From a bacterium (GTDB lineage Bacteria > Patescibacteriota > Minisyncoccia > Minisyncoccales > UBA10102): a stretch of DNA of 64,000 nucleotides. The notes beneath the pieces were generated by a model that was given only the letters and a program-made list of their open reading frames with translations, did no database searches and was not told where the DNA came from. Positions within the stretch are counted from its first letter, which is position 1. Each line of letters starts with the position of its first letter. The position numbers and the translations under genes are program-made. Below, piece after piece: positions 4,560 to 13,492 of the stretch. Location: assembly GCA_030647485.1 (NCBI GenBank), contig JAUSJT010000004.1:45088-109087 (forward strand). Direction: 5' to 3'.

Positions 4560-6326
4560 ATGATTTCTTCCCCCATTGAGGAAATAAAGGAGAAGTTGGA
4601 TGTTATGCAAGTAGTGGGAGAATACATCAAACTCCAAAAGGCGGGCGCTAACTACCGCGCGCTTTGTCCGTTTCACCAGGAAAAGAATCCTTCTTTTTTT
4701 GTAAGCCCAAGCAGGCAGATGTGGCATTGTTTTGGCGGGTGCGGAGAAGGAGGAGATATATTCAAGTTTGTCATGAAAATAGAGGGCATAGAGTTTGGAG
4801 ATGCCCTTCGTCTTTTGGCTCAGAAGGCAGGAGTTGAATTAAAGGCATTGGATCCTGCCGTAGCCCGTATGCAGTCAGAACGAAAGGGCATGGCAGAATT
4901 AATGGAGTGGTGCGCGAAGTTCTTTGAGAGGCAGTTGGCAGACTCTCAAGCAGGTAAGGAGGCGGCGCAGTATCTGTTGGACAGAGGGGTTACCAAAGAG
5001 AGTATGATAAAGTGGAGATTGGGGTATGCCCCGGATTCTGCCTTGGGGTTATGCGAGTTTTTAGAGGGCAAGGGATACTCAAGAGACGAGGTTGGTAGGG
5101 CAGGCATGCTGGCGTATTCTGAAGGAAAAACGTATGATCGGTTCCGAAGCCGCATTATGTTTCCCGTTGCAGACCTGCACGGTTCTATCATTGGTTTTGG
5201 CGGCAGGATTTTTACCAAGGCGGGAACTGCTGTTAAGGAAGGGTTTGCAAAGTACATCAATACTCCCAATACTGCGCTGTATGATAAGAGCAAGGTATTG
5301 TACGGACTAGACAAGGCAAAGATGCAAGTACTAAAGAACGATGCTTGCATTCTTGTAGAAGGGTATATGGATACCATTATGGTGTCGCAGGCTGGCAACG
5401 AGAATGTGGTTGCGGTGTCTGGCACTGCTTTAACTCCCTGGCATCTTAAGATTTTAAAGCGCTATACCGAGAATCTTCTTCTTTCTTTTGATATGGATAT
5501 TGCAGGAGATACTGCAACAAGACGGGGCATTGACCTTGCACTGCAAGACGGGTTTTCCTTAAAGGTTATAACCATGCCAGAGAAAGATCCCGCAGAGGTT
5601 ATTCAAGAGAATCCCGAAACGTGGAAAAAGTTTCTAGAAGGCGCAGTATCTATTCTTGATTTTTACTTTTCCACCGCGTTTTCCCGTCATGACGCAAAGA
5701 GTCCTGAAGGCAAGAAAGCCATAGCAAAAGACCTGCTCCCGATTATTGGAAAGATAGCGAATAAGATAGAGCAGGCGCATTGGATTCAAAAGCTTTCTCA
5801 TGAGATTGGAGTAAGAGAAGAAGTTATTCAAGAGGAATTGAAGAAAGTGAAGGGAGGAGTAGAGTCGTATGGTGGGCGTCAAGACGTTGTTCAAGGTACC
5901 GTCGCTCCCGCTTCAAGAAAGCAGCTATTGGAAGACCGCACTCTAGCCCTTTTGTTCCGGAGGCCCGAAAATCTCACGCTGATTGCAGAAGAGCATCTTT
6001 CTTTGTTTAGCGTGAAGACCCAGGAAATCCTTGCAGGGTTTGAGAAGAATCCTTCACTGGGTTTTCAAGGGTTTGAGGGGTTATTTTCTTCTGAAACCAT
6101 TGAGTTTTTAAAGTATATTGCCTTAAAGTCCGAGATTGAGGAAGAGGACGCTGACTGGGAAAAGGAGTGCAGGGTGTGCCTAGAGCAGCTTCACTCCTTG
6201 TTTATTAAGGAGAAATTAGATAGTATTGCAAAAGAGATTCAAGACGCAGAGGAGCGCAAAGACGCAGTAAAGCTTGGCGAGTTGCTTTTGCAGTTTCAGG
6301 AGATGAGCCGTAAGATTATTTTATGA
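4560..6326 (+). CDS. dnaG: DNA primase
   Basis: CHC2 zinc finger [11 protein letters not shown]...CFGCG, TOPRIM LVEGYMD and DMDIAGD. Confidence 0.95.
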
Positions 6327-7564: not shown

Positions 7565-7640
7565 AGCTCCGGCGGTAGGATTCGAACCTACGACCAAGTG
7601 CTTAACAGGCACCTGCGCTACCGCTGCGCTACGCCGGAGC
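7565..7640 (-). tRNA. tRNA-Asn (anticodon GTT)
   Basis: Reverse complement folds as cloverleaf: acceptor GCTCCGG/CCGGAGC, anticodon loop CTGTTAA, T-arm GTAGGTTCGAATCCTAC; putative promoter TTGAAA-16-TATAGT upstream on minus strand (7665-7692). Confidence 0.9.
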
Positions 7641-7743: not shown

Positions 7744-8448
7744 ATGAGATACGAAATTGGAACATTCGTTCATGTATGCGCCCGTGGGACAAGAGGATTG
7801 CCTATTGTTCATGATGATCAAGACAGATGGCATTTTCTTGAGCTTCTTTATTACTGCAATCATACTGAATCTCGGCGCAACCTCTTTCGTAAACTGCAAG
7901 AGAGCAAAGAAGAAAACAAAACAAAAAAACTATTCTTTTGGCCTCCTGTATGGAGAGAACGGGAACCCATAGTAAGTGTTGTTACCTATGCCCTAGTAGA
8001 GAATCATTACCATCTGCTTTTGCAGGAGCGTGTTGAGAATGGAATATCACGGTTTATGCAAAAAATTGGCATTGGTTTCGCAAAGTATTACAACCAGAAG
8101 TATAAAACGAAAGGCAATCTTTTTCAGGGAAGATATCGTGCAAAGGTTGTGGACACGGATGAGTACCTTTCTTATGTGAGCGCCTATATTCAGGCAAAAA
8201 ATATTCTTGAGGTGTATCCTGGCGGTTTGGGATCCGCGCTCTCAAATCTAGAAAAGAGCTTCCAATGGGCAACCGAATATCCGTTTGGTAGTTTAGGGGA
8301 CTACGTTGGCGCGAGAAAGTTTCCTATAGTAGAGAAGAGCGTTCTTGGAGATATGTTTTCTAGCCCTGCGTCTTACCAAAAGTTTGCAAAAGAATGCGTA
8401 AAGGGTATGAATTTAAAAGAAAAGCTCGGTAAATTAACCCTTGAGTAA
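7744..8448 (+). mobile_element. REP-associated tyrosine transposase (RAYT, IS200/IS605 Y1 HUH family)
   Basis: HUH motif in VENHYHLLLQE, FQGRYRAK, YVSAYIQAKN; flanked by inverted REP hairpins; promoter TTGCAC(7710-7715)-16-TACAAT(7732-7737) 6 nt before ATG. Confidence 0.8.
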
Positions 8449-8449
8449 A

Positions 8450-8474
8450 CCCTGTGCATTTCAGATATGCACGC
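8450..8474. repeat. REP-like hairpin copy 2 (inverted relative to copy 1)
   Basis: Reverse complement GTGCATATCTGAaaTGCACAGG differs from copy 1 only in the loop. Confidence 0.6.
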
Positions 8475-9686
8475 TATTATTACATCACGGCTTATGGAGC
8501 AACCAAACTCCGGCGGGATTTCAAGCAAAGAGCATTGGTTCGTCATCTGGTCAACTTTAATGAATTAAAAATCTTTGAGTCCGCTCAAGGTCAGCATAAT
8601 ATGATTACAATTTTGCAAAAAGGCCAAGACGAAAACGCCGTAGCCAAAACGGCTATTACACAAAAACAAGGCGTAGCAAAACAGGAAACGCTCCGGCAGA
8701 TATTAAGCGGAAACGATCCAGAAACTCCTTATTATCAAGTCAAGCAAAAAGATTTGTATGACGGTGATGATTACCAAATTAGGTTACAGGGAACATCAAT
8801 AGAAGGTCACGATCCCATACAAACAATTTTGAGCAAAATTAAAACTCACGGGGACCTTTTAGGAGTTATTTGTAACGTAAATCAAGGTATCGTTACCGGT
8901 GCAGATAAAGTATCAAAAAAGCATATTGAAAAGTATGGCATCAAAGCAAGCGTTGGCGATGGGATATTCATTCTGTCAAAGAGAGAAATTGTTGACCTAA
9001 AACTCTCGGCTGATGAGAAAAAACTATTAAGGCCATGGTTTAAAAATTCAGACATACTTAGATGGACCGCATCAAAAGATACAAAAAAGGAAGTTATCTA
9101 TTCAAACGATGAAACTGTATCAGACATAGAAGACCTTCCAAATTTAGAACGGCATCTTGCTAAATTTAAAAAAATAATTTCGGCCTATGCTTATCGCTGG
9201 CATGATTTACATAGATCTCGGCAATTGAAGATATTTGAAGGACCTAAAATCGTTGTTCCACAGCGTAGCCCACTCAATACTTTTGGCTATAACGAAATTC
9301 CTTGGTATGCAAGTGCCGATGTGTATTTTATTACAACGAAAAACAAGGAAATTTCTTTAAAATATATCTTGGCTCTTCTTAACTCACAACTATATTACCT
9401 TTGGCTTTATTACCAAGGCAAAAGAAAGGGAGAAATATTAGAGCTTTACCAAGCACCCCTTTCGGAGATTCCAATTAAGAAAATTTTAGAAAACGAACAA
9501 AAATCATTTATTAATCTCGTTGATAAAATCCTTGCTCTTACTAAAGACAATGATTATTTAAAAAACTCTGAAAAACAAGCCAAAGTCCACGACTACGAAA
9601 AACAAGTTGACCAGTTAGTCTATAAACTCTACAGCCTTACGCCGGAGGAGATTGAGGTTGTGGAAAAGAAGGATGGTCGACCTTAA
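8454..9686 (+). CDS. N-terminally truncated Eco57I/TaqI-type N6-adenine DNA methyltransferase: only the target-recognition (TaqI_C-like) half remains
   Basis: GIVTGADKV, LLRPWFKNSDILRW, KIVVPQRS...WYASADVYFI, LLNSQLYYLWLY, LYSLTPEEIEVVE typical of the C-terminal half; no AdoMet or NPPY/NPPW motif; frame opens only 9 nt upstream, GTG start lies inside REP copy 2. Confidence 0.65.
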   Translation: MHFRYARYYYITAYGATKLRRDFKQRALVRHLVNFNELKIFESAQGQHNMITILQKGQDENAVAKTAITQKQGVAKQETLRQILSGNDPETPYYQVKQKDLYDGDDYQIRLQGTSIEGHDPIQTILSKIKTHGDLLGVICNVNQGIVTGADKVSKKHIEKYGIKASVGDGIFILSKREIVDLKLSADEKKLLRPWFKNSDILRWTASKDTKKEVIYSNDETVSDIEDLPNLERHLAKFKKIISAYAYRWHDLHRSRQLKIFEGPKIVVPQRSPLNTFGYNEIPWYASADVYFITTKNKEISLKYILALLNSQLYYLWLYYQGKRKGEILELYQAPLSEIPIKKILENEQKSFINLVDKILALTKDNDYLKNSEKQAKVHDYEKQVDQLVYKLYSLTPEEIEVVEKKDGRP

Positions 9687-9740: not shown

Positions 9741-10421
9741 ATGACTGAGAAAACCTTTGTCAAACAATTAGAGGATATTTACAAAAAAGAAGGTTTTTTG
9801 ACAAGGCAAGAGGTGGGCGTTGGTTATGGAGTAGCCGATCTTGTTCTTGTAAAACTGATTCCCGAGCAGTGCGCGATCCGTTTAAAAAATAAACAGCTCA
9901 AGCCGCTTTTGAGAGAGGATTATTTTAAAATATTCAGATATCTTCCCGAAGAAGAAAGCAGGAAAGACCCCGTGACCCTTGATCACTTAGTGAAGCGAAC
10001 TAAGTTGTCGAAATCCTTTCTCAAATATCATATACTCCAACAACTCGAGCGCGATGGTTACATAAAGAAAGTTGATGAGAGTTTTTATTTCAAAATTAAC
10101 GGCTGGATGCCAATTGCTAAAGAAATTATTGCGATTGAGGCAAAACTCAAAGATTGGAAGCGAGGATTTATTCAAGCGAACCGGTACAAGTCGTTCGCTA
10201 ATAAAGTTTATTTAGCATTGCCAGCCGATAAGGCTCATCTGGTAGACGGTGCATTATTAAAGAAGCACAATATTGGTCTGATTGCTTTTGATCCGATGGA
10301 GTCAGAAATTAAAAAAACTGTTCATCCCCGATCAGCTCAACCGCGCAATGTCTTCAAATACGATTTTGCAGCCGAATTCTTTTTGAGCCGTAGTATACTA
10401 AAAAAGTTTGCCCTTCTTTAG
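9741..10421 (+). CDS. PD-(D/E)XK nuclease-fold protein with inserted winged-helix-like segment (possible restriction-endonuclease remnant/partner)
   Basis: GVADLVLV ... AIEAKLKDWKRGFIQANRYKSFANKVYLALP (D...ExK arrangement); function inferred from motif only. Confidence 0.45.
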   Translation: MTEKTFVKQLEDIYKKEGFLTRQEVGVGYGVADLVLVKLIPEQCAIRLKNKQLKPLLREDYFKIFRYLPEEESRKDPVTLDHLVKRTKLSKSFLKYHILQQLERDGYIKKVDESFYFKINGWMPIAKEIIAIEAKLKDWKRGFIQANRYKSFANKVYLALPADKAHLVDGALLKKHNIGLIAFDPMESEIKKTVHPRSAQPRNVFKYDFAAEFFLSRSILKKFALL

Positions 10422-10871
10422 TTTCGAGAAGATATCGTTTAAAAAAGTTGCTGGATCAACGACGATAATGCCTGCGTGTTTTTTTACTCCCAAAACTTTC
10501 GTATCTTTTGAAATTATAATTTGTGCTCTTGCAAGGAGAGCGGTTCTGAAAAACAAATCGTCATCTTTATCACCATCAACGACCCTCAAATCGGCAAGCT
10601 CGCCACGAAGTGAGACCATATTAATAATTCCCCTATAGTCCAGAGTCAACTTCTCCGGCGTGTAAATATTGCTGGCTAGAATCTTCTTAAATTTTTCGCG
10701 TCTGATAACATCACAAAATTCATTGTAGGTTTCTTCACTTCCATACAATTCAATCTCATTTGTTTCTGCAAGGTTGAGTATTTGTCTTGGGTCGCCGTGC
10801 CACAAGAACCCCGAAATTATGAGGTTTGTATCGGGAACTACTTTGATGAGTTTACTTGGAACGCGCCTCAT
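10398..10871 (-). CDS. PIN-domain RNase toxin (PIN_3/VapC-like)
   Basis: VVPDTNLIISGF start, conserved acidic positions (DTN, SEETY, DGDKDDD, SKDT); 20-nt overlap with upstream gene. Confidence 0.8.
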   Translation of the reverse strand: MRRVPSKLIKVVPDTNLIISGFLWHGDPRQILNLAETNEIELYGSEETYNEFCDVIRREKFKKILASNIYTPEKLTLDYRGIINMVSLRGELADLRVVDGDKDDDLFFRTALLARAQIIISKDTKVLGVKKHAGIIVVDPATFLNDIFSKLKKGKLF

Positions 10872-12054
10872 GGATTACCTGCGCGAGATCAGCGGCCGCC
10901 TTGTCTTGATCCGTGCCGTACTTCCAGCGCTTTGAGGACTCCAAAACCCCTATCCATCTTTTGAGGTGACTTGTTTGGAGCGGTATCGCGAATCTCCCGT
11001 ATAGACCCTCTGCTAAATCTAGAGCTTCTTCAAGCCGTCCACGCATCAATCCCATCCTCTCATTCTGGCTTAAACCCGCCATTTTTCTCATTGCTTCCAA
11101 TCGTCTATACAAGAAGTGGAGTTTCTTTGATGCGTAGTCAACTGGCATCTTGCCGTCACATGACGCACAGGAGCACTTATAATTAATCAGCCTTACAATT
11201 TCATCGTTTACATAATCAAAAAGTTCGGGAATATAAGTTTGAGCTAGTTTCTTTTTTTGCGGGAAGAATTTAAGCTTCTGCTTCAGATTTTTTTCTGAAA
11301 AGGTTTCCAACCAACCCAAGCCGCTACTGAATCCACTAGCTCCGATCGCACACAAGACCTCCCCAAATGCGCCTATTGATAGAACGAAAACATCCTTATC
11401 AATCGATAACTGAAAAACAAGCCATGCCAAGCCTTTCAAAGAGTCCTCATCACTCTTTATATCGTTGAGATTATCAACCATTATGAAATAACCCGCAAGA
11501 TCAGCATTGCAATCTTTATACCTATCGATTACCTGATTCAGCATTTTGGGATTTCCTATACTTGAATTTCCGATATTAATCATTGCAAAAAGCGGCTTTC
11601 GTATTTTTTCCCTTCGCAGGTATTTGATACTGTCAGGGATGAGTGTGTGATTTAAGCGGAATTTATCTCCACTAGTATCTTCACTAAAAAGGTAGGGTGC
11701 AATTACAAAATCGGCACCCTTATCGAGCTGGAACTTTATAGATGGCTCTACGAAGCTGGTAATGCGATATTTTTCATCCCCGAATAGCTTTGGCATTTCA
11801 AAAGGTTTCTTTGGAGCATATGGTACTTTCTGAAAAGCCTTCTTTTCCGTGAACGCATCATATACAAGATTGTTTGTCATCGGATCAATAATAAACAGCG
11901 TGCTTGTATTGCGAGCTTTCGTTGCCAAATTTTTATAGTGTGCCGCGATATTTGCGGTCATCAAGCTTGCCGGCAATCTTCTGATCTTGGTGGCAACCCC
12001 GTCCTGGTTCATTAATCTAGGTATAAAGATAGGAGATGAAATAATTTTTGGCAT
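10852..12054 (-). CDS. 400-aa uncharacterised protein, predicted alpha/beta-barrel-like with TGT-type CxCxxC...H zinc knuckle
   Basis: Alternating strand/helix pattern (LFIIDP, FVIAPY, LFAMINIG, GYFIMVDN, VFVLSIG), YKCSCASCDG...KKLH, helical C-terminus; no family confidently recognised. Confidence 0.7.
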   Translation of the reverse strand: MPKIISSPIFIPRLMNQDGVATKIRRLPASLMTANIAAHYKNLATKARNTSTLFIIDPMTNNLVYDAFTEKKAFQKVPYAPKKPFEMPKLFGDEKYRITSFVEPSIKFQLDKGADFVIAPYLFSEDTSGDKFRLNHTLIPDSIKYLRREKIRKPLFAMINIGNSSIGNPKMLNQVIDRYKDCNADLAGYFIMVDNLNDIKSDEDSLKGLAWLVFQLSIDKDVFVLSIGAFGEVLCAIGASGFSSGLGWLETFSEKNLKQKLKFFPQKKKLAQTYIPELFDYVNDEIVRLINYKCSCASCDGKMPVDYASKKLHFLYRRLEAMRKMAGLSQNERMGLMRGRLEEALDLAEGLYGRFAIPLQTSHLKRWIGVLESSKRWKYGTDQDKAAADLAQVIHEARSK

Positions 12055-12128
12055 GTCGCCCTAATCTTATCAGGATACCGCCTCTTTATCAAGCCTTTGT
12101 ACTGGTCCATGACATTATGATACATCCA

Positions 12129-12169
12129 GACCCTTAAAAACATCAGATAGAACAAGGGTCCGACCCTTG
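12129..12169. promoter_or_regulatory. Palindrome CAAGGGTC-C-GACCCTTG plus extra GACCCTT copy (alternative pairings) in divergent intergenic region
   Basis: GACCCTT 12129-12135, AAGGGTC 12154-12160, GACCCTT 12162-12168. Confidence 0.4.
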
Positions 12170-12206
12170 CAACAGGGAAAAATAGTGAGTAGCAGTGTGG
12201 GATAGT

Positions 12207-12234
12207 TTGCTTTTCTCTGGCTATTTGCTATAAT
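12207..12234 (+). promoter_or_regulatory. Sigma-70-like promoter TTGCTT-16-TATAAT
   Basis: TTGCTT 12207-12212, consensus TATAAT 12229-12234. Confidence 0.5.
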
Positions 12235-12240
12235 GAGAGT

Positions 12241-12430
12241 GCAGTTGACAATATAAAAAGTGAAGTTTGTGCACATAATCACGAACCGTTTATTTCTCCC
12301 TTCGGGGTAGGCAATCTGGGAAATCTGTGGAAAGCCAAATGAAATAAGCGACTAATCGCAAAAGCGGTTGGGAGATTTCATTCAACCATGTCGAAGGTTG
12401 GATCAAAACTCTTAGCCGCTTTTTGTTTGT
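12241..12430 (+). ncRNA. Candidate ~190-nt structured RNA (unknown class) ending in long-stem intrinsic terminator
   Basis: No ORF; hairpins CCC-UUCG-GGG, GCGA-cuaa-UCGC, UUCAACC/GGUUGGA; outer stem AAAGCGG(12361-12367)/CCGCTTT(12416-12422) followed by TTTTGTTTGTTT. Confidence 0.35.
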
Positions 12431-12482
12431 TTAGTCGGCAACGGAAGCGCTGGGAGCATTATCAGATTAAGAACAAACTATT

Positions 12483-12716
12483 ATGGAAGATTCAATGAGA
12501 AAATTAGCGAGGTATGAAGGTGAGTTTTGGTTTATCGATCTAACTGGAGATAACTGGGTGGTAGACATTGTTGCTTTGGATGGAACACGACGTCCTGCAA
12601 CAAATAAAGATGGACCCTTTATGGATGTTTTAATGTATGGGCCTTGTGTCGCTAGTCCACCCGCAAATCCATCGCCTGGATGGTTTATTAACTTCTTTAA
12701 AACATATAGCCCATGA
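12483..12716 (+). CDS. Small hypothetical protein (77 aa; alternative start 12495)
   Basis: ATGA overlap with the downstream HD gene suggests coupling; no recognisable motif. Confidence 0.45.
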   Translation: MEDSMRKLARYEGEFWFIDLTGDNWVVDIVALDGTRRPATNKDGPFMDVLMYGPCVASPPANPSPGWFINFFKTYSP

Positions 12717-13492
12717 TCTACACACAAAAAATAAAAGACGCAATCAATTTCGCAGTAAAGACCCATGAGGTTTATCAAAAGCAGAAACGAAAAGGCAAGG
12801 ACATTCCGTATATCACGCATCCACTTATTGTCGGCCTTATCTTGACTGGCACTGGAGCAAAGGAGGATGTAATTATCGCAGGTATCCTTCACGATACCAT
12901 TGAAGATAGCGTGCCAGAAAAGAAAGTATCACGGGATATGCTTGCAGAGCGGTTTGGTGAGAATGTAGCTGATATTGTCGAGAGCGTATCTGAAAAATCA
13001 AAAGAGTTTTCTTGGAGTGAACGAAAACATGAAGCCCTTGAGCGTATTGAAAGTTTTTCGCAGGATTCGATTTTGGTAAAGTCGGCTGATATTCTTAGCA
13101 ACACAACCGAGCTTGTGGACGATTATGCGCGGGACAGAGACAAGATCTTTGCTAATTTCAACGCTACCAAGGAAGAAACACTCCTGCATTATCTTCGTGC
13201 AATTACTGCTCTCACAAAGAAATGGCCGGAAAGTCCTCTTAATGAAGATCTGCACAAGATTGCAAGAGAGCTTCAGTCAATGGGGGCGTTTGACTTCATG
13301 GTCAAGCATCATGTCAGGATCATTGAATACAGTGAGTACAGCGAGAATATGACGCTAGAGTGTCCTATATGCTACTGGGCGGGGACTCCAAAAGAAAGTG
13401 GCGGGATAGAGTACCACGATGACTTGCTTGATGTTTCGTGCCCAAACTGTGAAAAGATGCTTCTTGTAGTGAGCTATCCTCTTATAAAATAG
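12713..13492 (+). CDS. RelA/SpoT-type HD hydrolase (small alarmone hydrolase-like) with C-terminal zinc ribbon
   Basis: HEVYQKQKRKGKDIPYITHPL...AGILHDTIEDS matches the (p)ppGpp-hydrolase HD_4 signature; C-terminal CPIC...CPNC. Confidence 0.75.
   Translation: MIYTQKIKDAINFAVKTHEVYQKQKRKGKDIPYITHPLIVGLILTGTGAKEDVIIAGILHDTIEDSVPEKKVSRDMLAERFGENVADIVESVSEKSKEFSWSERKHEALERIESFSQDSILVKSADILSNTTELVDDYARDRDKIFANFNATKEETLLHYLRAITALTKKWPESPLNEDLHKIARELQSMGAFDFMVKHHVRIIEYSEYSENMTLECPICYWAGTPKESGGIEYHDDLLDVSCPNCEKMLLVVSYPLIK

Follow-up and report, generated by a model that had tools for sequence, protein, structure and literature searches.

A conserved leader RNA with putative competing terminator pairings upstream of HD-domain hydrolase genes in Patescibacteria, an orphan riboswitch candidate

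Introduction

Four described systems stand closest to the RNA element presented here. The ykkC subtype 2 riboswitches comprise the guanosine tetraphosphate (ppGpp), phosphoribosyl pyrophosphate (PRPP) and ADP/CDP subtypes, the last of which controls a nucleotide hydrolase of the NUDIX family; in T-box leaders, conservation is highest in the terminator's 5' arm, which must also form the antiterminator, and control is exerted through transcription read-through; cobalamin riboswitches employ a regulatory kissing loop, in which a conserved loop of the sensing domain contacts the expression platform; and the Escherichia coli 6S RNA gene, ssrS, is syntenic with ygfA. The element lies at positions 12207-12432 of the forward strand of a 64,000-nucleotide (nt) stretch of a patescibacterial genome (contig JAUSJT010000004.1, positions 45,088 to 109,087, of assembly GCA_030647485.1; Minisyncoccales, UBA10102), hereafter the window, whose own numbering is used throughout. 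In this element, an extended -10 promoter leads into about 190 nt of structured RNA with a long hairpin and a U tract at its end; the element precedes a small open reading frame (ORF) and a gene for an HD-domain phosphohydrolase. We posit, with a confidence only a little above even, that it is the 5' leader of this small-ORF/HD operon and acts in cis as a terminator/antiterminator switch, which would make it an orphan riboswitch candidate.

The window RNA shares part of its design with each of these systems and departs from all of them. Like the ykkC subtype 2 RNAs, it is a 5' leader with an intrinsic terminator and, by inference, would sense a phosphorylated nucleotide, but it gives no match to them at E <= 10, is built from a hairpin (P0), a three-way junction and a putative loop-to-platform pseudoknot, and occurs in Patescibacteria, where the genes under its presumed control are of the HD/small-alarmone-hydrolase type. 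The dual duty of its most conserved strand, which forms the terminator 5' arm and would also have to form the antiterminator, recalls the T-box, as does the proposed control by read-through; however, it has no Stem I, specifier loop or T-box sequence, Rfam finds no T-box match, and the proposed antiterminator lacks the 7-nt bulge for the tRNA CCA end. As in cobalamin riboswitches, a loop of the sensing domain could pair with the platform (here GAAAUCU with AGAUUUC, seen as complementarity only), but fold and size are unrelated, there is no B12-box, and the partner is a terminator arm rather than a second hairpin loop. Finally, a promoter-proximal RNA of about 190 nt followed by a conserved, co-oriented gene is reminiscent of ssrS-ygfA, whereas the long interrupted hairpin with a central bubble typical of 6S RNA is missing, Rfam gives no 6S match, the element is confined to some lineages, and competing pairings are predicted for the terminator. 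To our knowledge, almost nothing is known about gene regulation in Patescibacteria (the Candidate Phyla Radiation, CPR), which are thought to possess very few regulators.

A structured RNA supported by covariation

Homologous loci were gathered in two ways. Eighty species-representative loci were fetched through an alignment of the HD protein (48-66% identity to the window protein), so that the RNA had no part in their choice. A single-sequence nhmmer search with the window RNA matches 25 of them (E from 1e-12 to 1e-32), always upstream of the HD gene and on the same strand, and with a covariance model that was built on 39 sequences the window and the same 25 loci reach 105-139 bits. A two-box pattern, GGGAAATCTG and TTGGGAGATTTC separated by 30-60 nt, is found in at least 120 metagenome contigs and one IMG/VR contig, which brings the RNA to at least 146 instances in total; since this metagenome set was chosen by the invariant boxes, only the 25 protein-derived loci are unbiased with respect to box invariance.

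The forward-strand RNA (12240-12432) folds to -60 kcal/mol (z = -4.24, with none of 200 dinucleotide shuffles as good), and the fold of the reverse strand is unremarkable (z = -1.81). The original prediction, made from the window sequence alone, had proposed a structured non-coding transcript of about 190 nt; its structure is conserved in homologous loci, where RNAalifold on the 25 protein-derived sequences finds 43 pairs, 24 of them with compensatory changes. Among 100 model-aligned sequences, 95.6% of the cells are standard pairs, a value that, like the others observed, no shuffle attains; double changes occur in 27 of 40 pairs, and the covariation score of 0.465 compares with 0.04-0.12 (maximum 0.117) for controls in which the partners were slid by 1-3 columns.

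The architecture (Table 1) comprises P0, a three-way junction made by P1, P2 and P3, a linker, and the long hairpin P4 with its U tract. A hairpin of differing sequence occupies the P0 site in 96 of 100 homologues and is absent from a few whose leaders are short. Compensatory changes affect each of the 10 pairs of P1 in the 100 sequences, and its 10-nt length is fixed in 93% of them; in 94 of 98 homologues the P2 segment folds as a hairpin, which comes in many different sequences and has from 3 to over 15 base pairs (bp); P3 is 29 nt long in 96%, and its loop, GGGAAAUCUG, is invariant across the 25 protein-derived loci. Taken together, the lengths of P1, P3, the 4-nt J3/1 junction and the P4 base are fixed in 93-98% of sequences, and free length variation is confined to P2, the linker and the P4 apex, which ranges from 10 to 59 nt above a base of fixed length. 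A run of at least four T follows the P4 stem directly, or after one or two pyrimidines, in the listed loci (U5-8), the listing having kept only loci with such a run. Of the local hairpins first discerned in the window, CCC-UUCG-GGG corresponds to P2 and UUCAACC/GGUUGGA to the P4 apex, both with covariation support, and the terminal composite stem with its U tract is present and conserved in homologues; GCGA-cuaa-UCGC, by contrast, is not conserved: the 5' half is part of P1, and the 3' half takes part in an alternative hairpin with the P4 base.

The covariance model also gives weak minus-strand matches (17-39 bits) over P4, in the window (12357-12446, -) as in most homologues. P4 and the flanking A/U runs are nearly symmetric, so that termination from either direction is possible in principle.

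Possible alternative pairings of the terminator arm

Across the unbiased set, the P4 5' arm, UUGGGAGAUUUC, never changes, and the 3' arm varies through G-U/G-C/A-U exchanges. This invariance fits a strand that serves several partners, which would behave in just this way, and two possible partners besides the 3' arm can be identified for the switch segment GCGGUUGGGAGAUUUC.

The first is the linker. In the minimum-energy fold, linker bases 12352-12359 (CUAAUCGC) pair with 12364-12371 (GCGGUUGG), and across 100 sequences the pairing of linker CUrAyCG (12352-12358) with CGGUUGG (12365-12371) holds in 94.8% of the cells. Linker variation is always compatible with pairing (A/G opposite U, C/U opposite G), and where the partner changes from G to A the linker has a matching U in seven of seven sequences. 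The second is the P3 loop, in which GAAAUCU (12320-12326) is perfectly complementary to AGAUUUC (12373-12379), giving 7 bp and -7.8 kcal/mol. The two pairings cover 15 of the 16 nt of the switch segment and, as judged from complementarity, can together form a complete antiterminator. The geometry appears to agree with the loop pairing: because the fixed length of P3 about equals that of P1, P3 lying alongside P1 would put its loop at the P1 base, and because the strand 3' of the linker hairpin emerges at that same base, the loop would lie close to the switch strand.

When P1 and P3 are enforced and the pseudoknot is left out of the calculation, the fold with the linker hairpin lies 9.6 ± 2.6 kcal/mol above the terminator fold, which is thus the ground state; it would take kinetic trapping or a bound factor for the antiterminator to prevail. 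A further pairing, of linker GACU with (A/G)GUC after the U tract, can be drawn in many loci, not in all; GAC never varies, the flanks often mismatch, and this pairing is unproven.

Distribution and association with downstream genes

Among the 55 protein-derived loci that gave no nhmmer match, the covariance model at E <= 1 finds nothing, and a fuzzy version of the two-box pattern (up to 2 + 3 mismatches) finds no diverged copy where one would be expected. A locus thus either carries the RNA with a near-identical core or has none of it, and the RNA is conserved more strongly than the neighbouring HD protein; with no diverged copies, there are no natural variants on which the pseudoknot could be tested. 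Carriers are labelled Nomurabacteria, Taylorbacteria, Staskawiczbacteria, Falkowbacteria, Paceibacteria and similar, and no RNA is found in the loci of Moraniibacteriota, Kaiserbacteria and Lloydbacteria. The HD homologues in metagenome-assembled genomes (MAGs) of these last three groups (e.g. loci L024, L039, L045, L052, L042 and L048) show no trace of the RNA within 3 kb upstream.

The association with downstream genes is directional. The RNA pattern by itself picks out 121 loci, of which 93 extend for 800 nt or more downstream; in 64 of these 93, a same-strand ORF of the HD family seen in the window lies no more than 700 nt downstream, and not one of the 93 carries such an ORF upstream or on the opposite strand. 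The distance from the motif to the ORF start is at most 130 nt in 30 of the 64 HD-linked loci, which corresponds to about 25-70 nt past the U tract, and several loci carry an AGGAG-type ribosome-binding site directly after the U tract. Such genes can be expressed only by read-through, because there is no room for a separate promoter.

In the window, the RNA ends, much as the original prediction had placed it, at about 12432, 51 nt before the start of a 77-aa ORF; this ORF in turn overlaps the start of the HD gene. The 77-aa ORF has homologues at the same position after the RNA in two other loci (L161 and L198) and no Pfam or NCBIfam match. The HD protein carries HDxxED and SADxxxN motifs. Among solved structures, the small alarmone hydrolases 7qoe and 7qoc come nearest to it, ahead of Lmo0812, Mesh1 of human and fly, and the hydrolase domains of Rel/SpoT; NCBIfam matches only the N-terminal part of spoT_relA. 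It has more than 1,600 homologues, mostly in Patescibacteria MAGs, with 54-69% identity among the 120 best.

Where the main HD family is missing, the first gene may encode a member of a second HD family, either by itself or as a fusion with a CHLW...CxxC domain, which is also found on its own. Other first genes encode histidine phosphatases (His_Phos_1, 2.6e-29), one HAD-family hydrolase, and several families of small proteins without a Pfam match, to one of which the 77-aa ORF of the window belongs.

Two observations concern the composition of these proteins. The C-terminal ~65 aa of the window HD protein, the Cys4 domain (13280-13492), have counterparts in L088, L108, L121 and L146, where a separate small ORF immediately 3' of the RNA encodes the domain by itself, and the second HD family is likewise split from a different Cys-rich domain (L119 versus L101, L147 and L149). 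Separately, the IMG/VR contig, which is classed as viral (L202; IMGVR_UViG_3300025323_000435), has at 4876-5022 (-) a copy of the RNA nearly identical to the one in a Nomurabacteria MAG (L019). Two ORFs come after it, of 79 and 279 aa, and the first ~20 residues of the longer one resemble the HD protein N terminus; the contig may be a piece of a Patescibacteria genome that was misclassified, or the copy may be borne by a phage.

Comparison with described RNA families

The original prediction could match the RNA to no known class, and database searches bear this out. At gathering thresholds, the sole Rfam 15 match in the whole window is a tRNA (7567-7638, -); at E <= 10, the region itself gives only chance-level matches to snoRNA, miRNA and CRISPR-repeat families far below their gathering scores; and at E <= 1, 16 homologous loci give no match on the RNA. 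No Rfam match was obtained to, among others, ykkC/ppGpp/PRPP, T-box, GEMM, ydaO, preQ1, 6S, SRP, tmRNA or RNase P. A search of the full-text literature found no description of a leader RNA or riboswitch from Patescibacteria/CPR and none of an RNA motif tied to genes for HD proteins or small alarmone hydrolases, and neither of two large motif catalogues, a 224-motif survey and a 50-genome survey, mentions Patescibacteria or HD-domain genes. The element is a candidate for a class of terminator-type regulatory leader, and for an orphan riboswitch, not yet described.

Promoter, transcript limits and neighbouring features

The promoter was originally called near-consensus, TTGCTT-16-TATAAT. The sequence, the 16-nt spacer between the two hexamers and the -10 element hold up; the -35 hexamer does not merit the term. 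Since it matches TTGACA at only three of six positions, the promoter goes unlisted by a simple promoter scan, which demands at least 4/6 matches in the -35 element. The -10 element is the better conserved: among 131 homologues, TATAAT is matched at 5/6 or better in 123 and the TG extension is kept in 95, and in most the -10 lies 75-95 nt upstream of the invariant GGGAAATCTG. A GTAGTT found 6-7 nt past the -10 in homologues aligns with GCAGTT of the window, and transcription would start at about 12241, approximately 7 nt after the TG-extended -10.

The transcript is free of conserved coding sequence, as first proposed: mechanical ORFs of 36-55 aa are the only ones overlapping the region, and coding is excluded because homologue insertions in P2, the linker and the P4 apex have arbitrary length. 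Two candidate readings were rejected in consequence of such features. A protein-coding function fails because the overlapping ORFs are unconserved and mechanical and the indels are not multiples of three; and a ribosome-mediated attenuator fails because the sole forward-strand ORF (12388-12498, 36 aa) starts in the variable P4 apex and there is no conserved leader ORF.

Table 1. Features of the leader RNA and of the genes that follow it (window positions; strand as given)
Feature	Position	Strand	Remarks
-35-like hexamer, TTGCTT	12207-12212	+	3/6 match to TTGACA; scores vary in homologues
Extended -10, TGCTATAAT	12226-12234	+	perfect TATAAT (12229-12234), TG-extended; kept in homologues
5' leader	12241-12264	+	probable start ~12241 (GCAGTT), from alignments
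P0 hairpin, GUUUGUG-CACAUAAU-CACGAAC	12265-12286	+	predicted fold; abuts P1
P1 5' strand, CGUUUAUUUC	12287-12296	+	pairs with 12341-12350
P2 hairpin, CCC-UUCG-GGG	12298-12307	+	covariation; length varies among homologues
P3, GGC/GCC + UCUG/UGGA	12310-12336	+	stem covaries; loop G-GGAAAUCU-G centred on 12319-12327
P1 3' strand, GAAAUAAGCG	12341-12350	+	covariation
Linker, ACUAAUCGCAAAA	12351-12363	+	consensus GACUrAyCG; joins P1 to P4
P4, long terminator hairpin	12362-12421	+	12362-12387 pairs with 12396-12421; apex loop 12388-12395
Switch sequence, GCGGUUGGGAGAUUUC	12364-12379	+	terminator 5' arm; possible partners: 3' arm, linker, P3 loop
U tract, UUUUUGUUUGUUU	12420-12432	+	directly 3' of P4
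Spacer, terminator to first ORF	12433-12482	+	contains UAGUCGGCAACGGAAGCGCUGGGAGCAUUA, conserved in a subset of loci
77-aa ORF	12483-12716	+	first gene after the RNA; overlaps HD start (ATGA)
HD_4 phosphohydrolase	12713-13492	+	Pfam HD_4, 1e-16; C-terminal Cys4 zinc-ribbon-like domain

The promoter scan finds no consensus promoter in the spacer between the terminator and the first ORF. Part of this region (12429-12465) is conserved in sequence in 30 of 137 loci (e.g. L028, L116, L161 and L175), with the consensus UAGUCnGC-AAC...rrGAG-yAUUA, and lies too far from the start codon for an ordinary ribosome-binding site. RNAalifold finds no consensus structure in this conserved segment; by eye, it may hold a small covarying hairpin with a purine-rich loop (GCUC-UGG-GAGC / ACGGC-nAAGA-GCCGU).

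The RNA lies in the intergenic region 12055-12482, whose other border is a 400-aa ORF (10852-12054, -), which is overlapped in turn by a PIN_3 ORF (10398-10871, -). Of the TGT-like/PIN label first given to this pair, the PIN_3 domain is borne out; the TGT-like part is not verified, the 400-aa ORF having no Pfam or NCBIfam match. Farther upstream, the tRNA gene (7567-7638, -) adjoins an IS200-like Y1 transposase ORF (7744-8448, +), which is followed by a TaqI_C specificity-domain ORF (8454-9686, +); this cluster may be an insertion hotspot or a defence-type islet.

A model for conditional termination

Three roles had been considered for the RNA at the outset: an independent small RNA (sRNA), for instance an RNA antitoxin; a cis-regulatory leader such as a riboswitch for an alarmone-like ligand; and a processing substrate. 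We favour the leader, first because members of a small set of gene families always lie downstream of the RNA in the same orientation, often with the start codon 25-70 nt away, and second because mutually exclusive pairings are predicted for the terminator 5' arm. The switching itself, its direction and the nature of the ligand we infer as follows. Transcription would begin at the TG-extended promoter, about 7 nt past the -10, and the nascent RNA would fold into P0 and the three-way junction of P1, P2 and P3. The switch segment could then be captured in either of two ways. In Fold A, the read-through state, its first half would pair with the linker (CUrAyCG:CGGUUGG) and its second half with the P3 loop (GAAAUCU:AGAUUUC, the pseudoknot); both partners would be transcribed 30-40 nt ahead of the competing strand, and the 3' arm of P4 would be left unpaired, allowing RNA polymerase to read into the genes. 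In Fold T, the termination state, the whole segment would pair with the 3' arm to form a hairpin with a 15-bp base, followed by U5-8, and an RNA of about 190 nt would be released. Because Fold T is the thermodynamic ground state, a bound factor would be expected to lock Fold A and thereby turn the genes on.

Our guess for the ligand is a phosphorylated small molecule, e.g. an alarmone or related nucleotide, that is removed by the very enzymes under control; a phosphorylated ligand is favoured because the downstream genes are recurrently phosphohydrolases. The original suggestion of an alarmone-like ligand is consistent with an HD gene that, by sequence, stands closest to small alarmone hydrolases. 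A more specific version, in which the RNA is a new riboswitch class that binds (p)ppGpp, (p)ppApp or a related pyrophosphorylated nucleotide and induces its hydrolase, strikes us as improbable in that exact form.

Several observations weigh against a ligand-responsive leader. Support for the linker hairpin comes mostly from one-sided variation against an invariant partner, and the seven compensated cases may be kin. Covariation cannot test the pairing of the P3 loop with the P4 arm, because both partners are invariant, and in the metagenome set the invariance of these pseudoknot partners is imposed by the search pattern. The platform is more conserved than the junction, which is unusual for riboswitches, and P4 could instead be a binding site for a protein or an RNA. 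Fifty-five of the 80 HD loci do without the RNA, and in about a third of the RNA-bearing loci the genes directly downstream encode small uncharacterised proteins rather than hydrolases.

These points lend some weight to a conditional terminator set by a protein or another RNA rather than by a small molecule, an explanation that we judge unlikely yet place first among the alternatives. Candidate factors are an RNA-binding protein acting on the P3 loop and P4 arm, the HD protein itself, autoregulating through its zinc ribbon, and a tRNA. All of the cis-regulatory evidence fits such a factor equally well; the most conserved parts, a hairpin loop and the arm of a long helix, are typical sites of protein or RNA recognition, and the Cys4 domain recurs as a stand-alone ORF directly after the RNA in several loci. 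Yet 28 loci have HD only, and others have His_Phos, HAD or unrelated small proteins, so that, with many linked genes lacking a zinc ribbon, autoregulation by this domain cannot be general. A tRNA fares no better, as the T-box family model gives no match and Fold A leaves a single nucleotide of UUGGG unpaired, which would provide no T-box-like bulge for the CCA end.

We regard it as somewhat less probable still that the element is an independent, stable sRNA of about 190 nt, with its own promoter and terminator, that is merely syntenic with the HD gene; such an RNA could sequester a protein or pair in trans through GGGAAAUCUG as a seed. The strong conserved promoter, the strong ground-state terminator and the invariant single-stranded loop would all suit this role, and the terminated species is expected under any model; since a terminated RNA of about 190 nt should exist, an sRNA could also arise as a by-product of the leader. 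Against a merely syntenic sRNA, however, the downstream ORF is always co-oriented and, in 30 of the 64 HD-linked loci, follows the U tract at 25-70 nt, without room for a promoter; the arrangement stays constant while the downstream families change; the RNA is missing from most HD-bearing lineages, unlike a housekeeping RNA; its architecture is not that of 6S RNA, for which Rfam gives no match; and, for action in trans, no other stretch of the 64-kb window is exactly complementary to the loop (complement CAGATTTCCC).

That the RNA belongs to neighbouring defence-like or toxin modules, e.g. as an RNA antitoxin to PIN, or is a processing substrate, is very improbable, because the link to a toxin module has only proximity in the window to commend it (PIN_3 ORF and 400-aa ORF, on the opposite strand), whereas the RNA has no ToxI-like tandem repeats (Tandem Repeats Finder reports one trivial 2.2-copy, 21-nt array inside P3), the upstream module is divergent with its PIN gene on the opposite strand and not adjacent, the consistent partner in other loci, which were located by way of the HD gene or of the RNA itself, is the same-strand gene downstream of the RNA, and nothing supports processing.

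Significance

The cis-acting terminator/antiterminator leader that we favour would form a large class, with at least 146 instances, that is sharply conserved, backed by covariation and described by a clear two-state model. If a ligand is found, it would point to a signalling nucleotide that these reduced organisms monitor and would help to assign functions to the families of small proteins that share the leader. Should the ligand prove to be an alarmone, the leader and its hydrolase would constitute a self-contained RNA feedback loop for stringent-type signalling in Patescibacteria, and the RNA would represent a second alarmone-sensing fold, structurally unrelated to ykkC subtype 2a. Even with a protein as the factor, the element would be a ready marker of a conserved regulon, and it would offer a native regulatory part for the emerging genetics of Patescibacteria.

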